From NCBI GenBank assembly GCA_965645245.1, contig OZ287077.1, forward strand, positions 930,001-994,000: a stretch of DNA of 64,000 bases, read 5' to 3'. Under the pieces are notes generated by a model. That model was not told where the DNA came from and searched no databases. It worked only from the letters and a program-made list of their open reading frames with translations. Origin of the DNA: Massalongia carnosa. Its lineage: Eukaryota. The translations under genes and the position numbers were made by a program. This document shows positions 44,572 to 47,620 of the stretch, piece after piece (positions within the stretch are counted from its first letter, which is position 1; each line of letters starts with the position of its first letter).

Positions 44572-45252
<681 letters not shown>

Positions 45253-45604
45253 TTTAGGTCAATAATGATTTAGTTGACGGGCGGAATGCGTGAAGAAAAT
45301 GTTTTGATCGTAGATTTGGAAATCTTAGCGCAAGCGTGCAGTGTGCCCTAACTTAAGGCTAGTGATCCTAAATCAGTTTAGCGGAATCTATGGAACTCAT
45401 TCTTAGGCGAAATTAAAACGTGAAAAGAATCTTTCTATTTCTGTCTCTCACCTTTCCAAACTGATACTTATCAAGCCAACGTTGCACTGCATATACGGAA
45501 TGGGATCCCTCAGCTTACTCAATTGCTTTCACCTGATATTGAAATGCAAGCCTTCGTGCTTAATCCAATTTTCCTGCCCTTTTTAACTACCAAGCACGCG
45601 AGCC

Positions 45605-47620
45605 ATGATCAACTGGATTAATTCTATGGGTTCATATGAGTTCACCGCCAATATGGAGAACACTACAGTCGGGATTATAGGCATGGGCGATATGGGCAAA
45701 ATGTACGCGAGAAGGATCAGTGATGCTGGATGGAGGTAAAGCAGCCCTGACGAACACAAGCTGTATGATGCTTGTGCCTGTCGTGTGAGTCTAAACCTCC
45801 TTCCTATGGCGCCGCTTGATTGCAATGATGACTTGAGTGCATTTGGCTCGAGTACGGCCCAAGTATCATCGTGGAAACCATTTTGGCTCCTTGCTGCTGC
45901 TTGGGTTGTCGATGATGTAAATTCTCAGCTACCTTAATTTATATGTCTGAACCTTCAATCTTCAGTTTTCGATCTACAACCTTTGAAGCTGTTAGCATCT
46001 AGCTAACATGCCAACTCTACAGGTAAAACTCGCAAAGCCTTCTGCAGAATTGATGTCTTACTGGAGCATCTCAGTGGCTGATTCTCCGACCTGCACAGGG
46101 TACATGCCTGCGATAGGGCGGAAAACTTCAATGCATTGAAGGAGGAGTTTTCTGGCCGGGTATATATTTCACTACATCATTTGAGCGTCCACATGTAACT
46201 AAGTAGCAAGGTAGAGCAATGTACACATATATCCAAATGGTCACCTTGTCTCCAGATCTAGCGACTGGATCCTGTACAGCGTGGAAGCCGAAGCTGTTGA
46301 GAAGATCGTTGCAATGTATGGTCCATGTATGGCAGACGATTTGCGCAACCATGAGACCCTAAACCAGCTACTAATCCCCGTTCTAGCCACGAAGCAAGGC
46401 GCCATCGTGGGCGGGCAAACCTCGTGCAAAGCACCGGAAATGGCCGCTTTCGAGAAATACCTCCCTACCGACGTCCAGATCGTTTCCTGCCATTCACTGC
46501 ACGGCCCCAAAATTGACCCCCGAGGCCAACCGCTGGTCATTATCAAACACCGCGCATCGCAGAAGAGCTTCGAACTCGTTGAACGCATCCTCTCCTGCTT
46601 TGGATCGTCGCAGGTCAACCTCACCGCGCTGAAACACGACCGTATCACCGCCGACACGCAGGCCGTGACCCATGCGGCGTTCTTGAGCATGGGCACGGCG
46701 TGGTGTGCCAACAACCAGTTCCCCTGGGAACACGAGCGGTACGTGGGCGGCATCGAGAACGTCAAGACCAATCTGATGCTGCGGATCTACTCGAACAAAT
46801 GGCACGTCTACGCCGGCCTCGCCATCCTCAACCCGGCTGCCAAGACGCAGATAAAGCAGTACGCCGAATCGGTCACGGAACTGTTCAAACTGATGCTCGG
46901 TGGGCATCAGGAGGAACTCGACACGCGAGTCCGCACGGCGGGAGAAGCCGTATTTGGCGGCCAGCGAGACGCACAGTTACTGCTGCGCGACGAAGTTCTG
47001 GATCGCTTTTCGCTGGGTAACGTCCCGAAGCAGCGGAAGCCGAACAACCATCTCAGTCTCCTGGCCATGGTGGATTGTTGGTGGAAACTCGGCATTATCC
47101 CTTACGACCACATGATCTGCTCCACTCCGGTCAGTCCTTGTTTTTGCCCCTCCCTTGCTCTGCTGAGCAACGAGTCAGAGATGAAAACCCGTTCTTACTT
47201 CATGCCTGTAGCTCTTCCGTCTTTGGCTCGGCGTAACCGAGTACCTATTCCGCAAACCCCAGCTCCTGAACGAAATCATCAACACCGCCATAAACGACAA
47301 CACCTTCCGCTCCGACGACTTGGAATTCACCTTTGCCGCTCGTGTGAGTCTTTCCCTTTTCCAATCCCTTTTCACTTTCCCCTCCTCCTCCAAACCCCCC
47401 CCCCCTCCTTTTCCAAAAATCCTTCCCTAGAAGGAAAAAACCCCCTCTAAAAACGAAAAAAATTTCCCCCCCTTAGGGCTGGTCCGACTGCGTCTCCTTT
47501 GGAGATTTCCCCTCGTACCGCGACCGCTTCGAGCGCTGCCAGCGCTACTTCGCCCCGCGCTTTCCCGAGGCTACGCGCGTGGGCAACGAGATGATCCGGA
47601 CGATTTTAGAGAAGATGTAA
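45605..47620 (+). CDS. TYR1: Prephenate dehydrogenase; introns 45736-46098, 46160-46214, 46328-46386, 47130-47211, ~47344-47477
   Basis: GIIGMGDMGKMYA Rossmann motif, GWRVHACD, GGQTSCKAPE, CHSLHGP, HDRITADTQAVTHAAFLSMG, DHMICSTPLFRLWLG. Confidence 0.96.
45821..45955 (+). ncRNA. snR13: Intronic box C/D snoRNA, snR13-like (guide for LSU rRNA Am2280/Am2281 in yeast numbering)
   Basis: Box C ATGATGA at 45825-31. Guide GCATTTGGCT at 45839-48 is complementary to LSU rRNA AGCCAAATGC. GCTACCTTAA at 45928-37 is complementary to the adjacent TTAAGGTAGC. Box D CTGA at 45947-50. The TGAGTGCATTTGGCTCGAGT block matches my recollection of yeast snR13. Confidence 0.88.

Follow-up and report, generated by a model that had tools for sequence, protein, structure and literature searches.

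A snoRNA-bearing intron in TYR1 of Massalongia carnosa with two conserved sets of splice signals, probably a nested intron

Nested introns of fungi are mostly regarded as by-products of intron gain, and we know of no reason for the persistence of the cases called 'sensu lato'. These are stwintrons in which a canonical intron lies within another canonical intron, and loss of either unit has been described (PMC8469720). Nested and recursive splicing has also been reported for fungal polycistronic hosts of small nucleolar RNAs (snoRNAs), in Candida and others (PMC5033589; PMC3596301), and spliceosome profiling of Cryptococcus neoformans yielded 13 nested cases and one recursive case (bioRxiv 10.1101/224170). 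Here we analysed intron 1 of a gene that we take, following a first-pass annotation of the sequence, to be TYR1 (prephenate dehydrogenase). It lies in a stretch of 64,000 nucleotides (nt) from Massalongia carnosa (GCA_965645245.1, contig OZ287077.1, positions 930,001 to 994,000, forward strand), hereafter the window. Like stwintrons, the intron contains two complete nested U2-type introns; unlike described stwintrons, its inner intron bears a snoRNA. Of the lineages compared, 23 carry this snoRNA, and 21 of these retain both sets of splice signals around it. On the strength of these sequences we consider nesting probable: TYR1 intron 1 would consist of one canonical U2-type intron placed within a second, and the inner unit would be spliced first.

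Two complete sets of splice signals in TYR1 intron 1

Exon 1 of TYR1 ends in ..GGA TGG AG and exon 2 opens with G GTA CAT GCC TGC GAT at 46099, so all of 45736-46098 must be removed to join GWR to VHACD. The protein reads GW[R/K] followed directly by V.ACD, without extra residues, in 67 related loci, bearing out the first-pass annotation, which had held that the whole 363 nt must go. It had also described this intron as unusually long, and the three other mapped introns of TYR1 measure 55, 60 and 82 nt. A scripted search of the window found every motif that it had listed at the position it had given (Table 1).

These motifs form two canonical U2 introns, each complete with donor, branch site and acceptor: GTGAGT/CTAAC/CAG within GTAAAG/CTGAT/CAG, which is the make-up of a stwintron. 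The outer donor departs from the consensus at +5 and +6. Joined together, the two outer segments (49 and 76 nt) make an external intron of 125 nt that has a branch site of its own. Between the outer donor hexamer and the start of the inner intron there are 43 nt, and 54 nt separate the end of the inner intron from the outer branch element; neither the donor, nor the branch site, nor the acceptor of the external intron is interrupted. With no outer signal interrupted, the arrangement belongs to the 'sensu lato' class only and not to stwintrons sensu stricto. From the end of box D of the snoRNA it is 56 nt downstream to the inner branch A and 131 nt to the outer one. Either outer segment, if retained, puts a stop directly after the GWR codon.

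We condensed the inner unit into a composite pattern of donor, box C, box D, branch site and YAG at set spacings. Its single match on both strands of the window is 45785-46022, and in 506,530 bases of related loci it found 36 TYR1 units and nothing elsewhere. Since this amounts to no false match in ~1 Mb scanned on both strands, the pattern could be used to search whole genomes for similar cassettes.

Table 1. Features of the TYR1 locus and its neighbour, in window coordinates
Feature	Position	Strand	Remark
TYR1 (prephenate dehydrogenase) exon 1	45626..45735	+	phase 2 at 3' end
Whole TYR1 intron 1	45736..46098	+	363 nt
5' outer segment	45736..45784	+	49 nt; opens with outer donor GTAAAG (45736-45741)
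Inner intron	45785..46022	+	238 nt; donor, snoRNA, branch site and acceptor; from composite pattern and lineage comparison
Inner donor GTGAGT	45785-45790	+	
Box C/D snoRNA	45826..45950	+	125 nt from box C to box D; orthologue of N. crassa CD1 / yeast snR13
snoRNA box C TGATGA	45826-45831	+	
snoRNA guide GCATTTGGC	45839-45847	+	
snoRNA D'-type box TCGA	45848-45851	+	
snoRNA C' TGATGT	45913-45918	+	
snoRNA second rRNA-complementary element GCTACCTTAA	45928-45937	+	presumed complementarity
snoRNA box D CTGA	45947-45950	+	
Inner branch site GCTAAC	46002-46007	+	branch A46006
Inner acceptor CAG	46020-46022	+	GTAAAA abuts directly
GTAAAA, possible recursive donor	46023-46028	+	
3' outer segment	46023..46098	+	76 nt; outer branch site and true acceptor
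Outer branch site GCTGAT	46077-46082	+	A46081
True acceptor CAG	46096-46098	+	
TYR1 exon 2 (G + VHACDRAENFNALKEEFSGR)	46099..46159	+	followed by a 55-nt intron
TYR1 exon 4, in-frame part	46389..47129	+	247 amino acids; query for relatives; Pfam PDH_C match
Ribosomal protein uS11 (RPS14) gene	44731..45258	-	Pfam Ribosomal_S11, E value 5e-16

Conservation and constraint in related loci

Relatives of the gene were sought in metagenomes with exon 4 as query. A total of 184 were confirmed by tblastn, and 80 TYR1 loci, 68-84% identical to Tyr1 exon 4 of the window, were fetched from metagenome contigs. Both flanking exons were found in 67 of these loci; together with the window they gave 68 sequences, 53 of them distinct, which fell into 25 lineages at 93% amino-acid identity. 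The other 13 of the 80 loci were left out of the counts: L019, L039, L042, L045 and L059 lack the snoRNA motif in the available DNA, L050, L051, L055, L057, L062 and L063 have no usable exon 1 match, and L022 and L031 fell below the exon 2 threshold, the nested pattern being visible by eye in both. Position and phase of intron 1 are identical in 24 of the 25 lineages, and the snoRNA lies inside the intron in 23 of them. The conservation of the inner signals in TYR1 orthologues, on which the first-pass annotation had made its proposal depend, is thus seen in 21 of 23 lineages.

In these 21 lineages the inner donor stands 35-45 nt before box C (median 41), the inner branch A 51-68 nt after box D (median 56) and the AG 11-18 nt after the branch A (median 14), within an inner intron of 229-259 nt (median 238). 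The 5' outer segment measures 41-124 nt (median 51) and the 3' outer segment 26-76 nt (median 47), and removal of the inner unit would leave an external intron of 77-164 nt (median 96). In 19 of the 21, the 3' outer segment holds a CTRAY 8-40 nt from the true acceptor. The surroundings of the splice motifs do not align from one lineage to another. When each flank was shuffled by dinucleotides, an inner donor was expected in 1.0 lineages and an inner branch site with AG in 1.4, compared to 20 and 21, respectively, observed among the 23. A GT directly after the inner acceptor occurs in three of the 21 nested lineages (the window, L037 and L077) vs 1.3 expected (binomial p 0.14).

Constraint was assessed in the seven lineages represented by at least three distinct sequences, which were aligned lineage by lineage. 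Ordinary intron positions varied at 411/1298 sites and the snoRNA at 61/895. Variable sites numbered 2/42 in the inner donor, 2/35 in the inner branch site and 1/21 in the inner acceptor; the outer donor had 1/42, the outer acceptor 1/21 and the outer branch site 7/35. Pooled, the inner signals are variable at 5/98 sites vs 411/1298 in the background (Fisher p = 7e-10), a level of constraint equal, by these alignments, to that of the true splice sites used for the mRNA. Site strength differs between the two sets. GTRNGT is matched by the inner donor in 19/21 lineages and by the outer donor in 8/21 (for the intron after exon 4 the figure is 14/19), and branch sites of the form CTRAC are found in 19/21 inner and 11/19 outer introns. 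The stronger inner donor and branch site argue for splicing of the inner intron first.

Some lineages depart from the pattern. One clade (support 100/98), made up of L026/L038 and L056, has a simple snoRNA intron in which the acceptor is directly followed by exon 2, and it is also without an inner donor. An inner donor is useful only if something is left for the outer donor to splice, and under the nested model it makes sense that the 3' outer segment and the inner donor are missing together. In L053/L054 the intron at this site measures 56 nt, with no snoRNA within 8.8 kb of sequence; such a short intron is the remainder expected if the inner unit alone is lost. L058 has no intron at this site. 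In a midpoint-rooted tree the exceptional lineages are placed among nested ones, and some forks are weak.

Other readings of the outer segments were tried and rejected. The 5' outer segment as a separate short intron or as the carrier of a micro-exon has no branch site and AG at a workable spacing, and an AG precedes the inner donor in only 5/21 nested lineages. An ATG that precedes the inner donor in several lineages was discarded as an alternative protein start on account of its frame (L046, by hand). Over the 21 lineages, neither a conserved hairpin in the 5' outer segment (mean z -0.4 vs shuffles) nor pairing between the two outer segments (mean z -0.1 vs shuffles) was found. The window itself has a hairpin at 45748-45784 with an ACAAGC/GCTTGT core (z -2.5), and the 5' outer segments of L065 (z -3.2) and L040 (z -2.3) contain hairpins unrelated to it.

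The snoRNA, its host gene and the neighbouring uS11 gene

The snoRNA is of the CD1/snR13 type, and the earlier label 'snR13-like' is right. CD1 of Neurospora crassa is a snoRNA of 125 nt that was cloned and is Northern-positive; it is located in an intron, as in the window, and is the homologue of yeast snR13 (PMC2780460). It guides 26S-Am2242 from D' (PMC2780460), and yeast snR13 directs A2280m and A2281m of 25S ribosomal RNA (rRNA; PMC4174444). CD1 and the window snoRNA have in common the order of box C, guide, D'-type box, C', GCUACCUUA element and box D, and their first ~30 nt are nearly identical. In CD1/snR13 as in the window snoRNA, box C is followed by CUUGAGUGCAUUUGGCU, and the length is ~125 nt. 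The guide GCAUUUGGCU with D' is identical to the published CD1:26S pairing diagram, in which the target is N. crassa 26S (PMC2780460). The boxes C, D', C' and D stand in order with a 10-bp guide upstream of the D'-type box, and by this pairing the fifth-nucleotide rule points to the middle A of an rRNA AAA triplet. The D' box reads UCGA in the window snoRNA vs UAGA in CD1, and the central part differs in sequence from that of CD1. This central region forms a helix that covaries, with compensatory changes in seven pairs; boxes and guides are invariant in 23 aligned orthologues. Yeast snR13 is an independent gene, not an intronic one.

A second invariant element (GCTACCT, at 45928-45937) is presumably complementary to rRNA just 5' of the guide target. 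It is separated from box D by 9-14 nt across a T-rich spacer, a distance that does not fit the fifth-nucleotide rule. The element may serve for accessory base-pairing rather than as a second methylation guide. An identity of snR13 with vertebrate U15, which had been considered, turned out to be wrong, as the N. crassa table pairs U15 with snR75 (PMC2780460). A 34-nt piece covering box C and the guide (45819-45852) has a match with one mismatch in low-depth contigs of runs X2 and X3 that are otherwise unlike the window; these probably stem from a different organism in the samples that has the same snoRNA.

As for the host gene, candidate start codons lie in frame at 45605, 45626 and 45653, and the Met at 45653 is where alignments of orthologues to exon 1 start. 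The 247 amino acids of exon 4 match Pfam PDH_C, the prephenate dehydrogenase dimerisation domain, weakly (E value 2e-4, 22 bits at a cut-off of 22). The introns before and after exon 4 are missing in many lineages, and L017, L026, L048, L056 and L058, for example, have neither; the snoRNA-bearing intron 1, unlike these, is retained in 23/25. In L025 (780-908), exon 1 has an in-frame 16-codon insertion compared to its near relatives L023 and L027, which could be a short extra intron or a true insertion.

The gene for ribosomal protein uS11 is divergent from TYR1, with its start ~370 nt from the TYR1 ATG, and the two stand head-to-head in 20 of 25 lineage representatives. The neighbour is absent from L024, L026 and L058, where the upstream sequence is shorter than 900 nt, and from L015 and L053, where it exceeds 3 kb. 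A promoter region common to both genes could link snoRNA output to ribosome production.

Proposed splicing order, alternatives and known systems

The nested arrangement is probably in use. In the pathway that we propose, the inner intron would be a snoRNA cassette of fixed geometry, with a consensus donor ~41 nt before box C, a CTRAC ~56 nt after box D and a YAG ~14 nt later. This unit would be spliced out first; its lariat would be debranched and trimmed to the snoRNA; and the 125-nt external intron (45736-45784 + 46023-46098) would then be spliced via GTAAAG, A46081 and CAG46098. The optimum for splicing-coupled assembly of C/D small nucleolar ribonucleoproteins (snoRNPs) is ~50 nt upstream of the branch point (review, PMC8162545), and for most intronic snoRNAs of N. 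crassa the 5' splice site is 41-60 nt away (PMC2780460), as the inner donor is here. The first-pass annotation had argued from the spacing of box D to a branch point, and this argument holds: the spacing to the inner branch A is 56 nt in the window and 51-68 nt across the nested lineages. Only the inner branch site offers the favoured distance, the outer one being 131 nt away, so position-dependent, splicing-coupled snoRNP assembly would be the likely reason for keeping the inner sites. Use of the inner branch site permits TYR1 mRNA only together with the inner donor, because the outer donor then stays intact for the second step. Splicing at the inner sites, its inside-out order and the reason for its selection are thus what we infer from the motifs, geometry, conservation, constraint and snoRNA identity observed.

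Several points weigh against this proposal. Two-step splicing is not obligatory: the inner intron interrupts no outer signal, and removal of the 363 nt in one step therefore gives the same mRNA. Two lineages, forming one clade, live with a simple snoRNA intron, so nesting is not needed for snoRNA production. The outer CTRAY was not found in two of the 21 nested lineages (L037 and L046). Lineages are related by descent, so that each one counted is not a separate event, and the tree has a midpoint root only, so that either state may be the ancestral one. No Rfam family reaches its gathering score in the window, where E values up to 10 bring only chance-level matches (snoZ155 and SNORD110), and nothing appears at E values up to 1 in 10 related loci. 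Finally, it is from conservation of the DNA that we read both the use of the inner sites and an inside-out order; contigs of the four sequencing runs compared with the locus carry the intron and yield no splice junction here.

Other accounts of the same signals have to be weighed against the nested one. Inner donor and outer acceptor, or outer donor and inner acceptor, might be cross-combined into stop-containing, unproductive TYR1 isoforms, a regulatory switch that would set Tyr1 output or uncouple the snoRNA from mRNA yield instead of a simple two-step pathway. Such a switch would make sense of the weaker outer donors (GTRNGT in 8/21 lineages vs 19/21 for the inner ones), of the stop directly after the GWR codon on retention of either outer segment, and of the uS11 gene lying head-to-head in 20/25, through which TYR1 transcription may track ribosome demand and not tyrosine demand. 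It is nonetheless unlikely: the inner donor, branch site and acceptor hold the geometry of one self-contained intron (229-259 nt) and are lost together in the sole clade that loses them. Moreover, the isoforms are predictions from the reading of the DNA, and with external introns whose lengths are not divisible by three, no alternative protein would be encoded. We find it quite unlikely that the 363 nt are instead removed in one step, with the inner motifs kept for a non-catalytic binding of U1/U2 that would aid snoRNP assembly or protect the nascent RNA. The correct mRNA would result, and the spacing from box D to the inner branch site is the optimum reported for splicing-factor-assisted C/D snoRNP assembly (PMC8162545), but this account leaves needless a YAG 11-18 nt past the branch A (yet variable at 1/21 sites only), a second full branch site in the 3' outer segment (yet present in 19/21 lineages) and a 5' outer segment long enough for an external intron of normal size (77-164 nt).

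The first-pass annotation had left the choice between nested and recursive splicing open. In the latter, the outer donor would be joined to CAG46022 and the regenerated donor GAG/GTAAAA to CAG46098. The window does have CAG/GTAAAA at 46020-46028, as a zero-length exon would, the regenerated GTAAAA is about as near to the consensus as the original GTAAAG, and recursive splicing has been documented for short fungal introns, in BOT1 of C. neoformans (bioRxiv 10.1101/224170) and in snoRNA polycistrons (PMC5033589). As the main route in this organism it is very unlikely, given that only 3/21 lineages have a GT behind the inner acceptor vs 1.3 expected (p 0.14), and that it leaves the strongly constrained inner donor without a role. 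The recursive route would be possible in the window in principle and is, at best, local to it. Of the two options, the nested one gains strong support from inner signals that are constrained and present in 21/23 lineages, and the AG/GT of the recursive one is not conserved. Each of the short motifs, taken alone, is not rare in one 363-nt sequence, and one could suspect an ordinary long intron that hosts a snoRNA and contains the inner motifs by chance or as relics in decay. This is extremely improbable in view of the 20-21 lineages out of 23 that carry the inner signals vs 1.0-1.4 expected, of their 5/98 variable sites vs 411/1298, and of a composite pattern with no false match in ~1 Mb on both strands.

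If the nested reading is taken further, the design could be an adaptive gate that uncouples an RNA of ribosome biogenesis from TYR1, its metabolic host. TYR1 would be driven from a region in common with uS11, and the strong inner intron would free the snoRNA from every transcript. The external intron, with its weak donor, would be spliced from a regulated fraction only, and the remainder, with a stop after exon 1, would be degraded. We put this forward tentatively, as a possibility that we would sooner doubt than believe; if true, it would explain selection for a whole extra intron over one long intron.

Most of what is known of position-dependent, splicing-coupled C/D snoRNP assembly comes from vertebrates; in filamentous fungi its effect may be large enough for an additional intron to be maintained. 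An entire inner intron with snoRNA-centred geometry, constrained like real splice sites across widely diverged fungi, provides a testable rationale for the persistence of nested introns. Annotation from final exon junctions alone would miss such nested units. A search of a limited literature collection found no paper tying a snoRNA to a prephenate dehydrogenase intron, and the sole paper found there with both 'stwintron' and 'snoRNA' names snoRNAs in passing only.

The predicted inside-out excision, via an intermediate that retains the external intron, would be shared with stwintrons, and the short intron of L053/L054 and the simple snoRNA intron of L026/L038 and L056 parallel the 'cropped' introns of the stwintron literature. 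Unlike in stwintrons sensu stricto, the external donor, branch site and acceptor are uninterrupted here, so that one-step splicing also works; unlike in described stwintrons, the arrangement is kept across lineages 68-84% identical to the window in Tyr1 exon 4. With the fungal snoRNA polycistrons the locus has in common snoRNA introns that abut or are nested, an ordered splicing that regenerates or preserves sites, a single snoRNA per intron and fixed distances to the splice sites. Those hosts are non-coding and have several snoRNA introns, which are separated by exons of 0-1 nt, whereas here one snoRNA lies in a phase-2 intron of a protein-coding metabolic gene, and the second step must restore the open reading frame. 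As in the nested cases of C. neoformans, a smaller intron would come out of a relatively large one (391 nt in their example), and the final junction is the same as after one-step splicing. The 13 nested cases are RNA-based and not shown to be conserved or snoRNA-bearing, while the basis here is conservation. The first-pass annotation had considered the route little described, which holds for a protein-coding host and goes too far otherwise, since nested and recursive splicing around fungal snoRNAs and 'sensu lato' stwintrons had been published. What TYR1 intron 1 adds to these known systems is a new, deeply conserved form of nested intron in a protein-coding gene.

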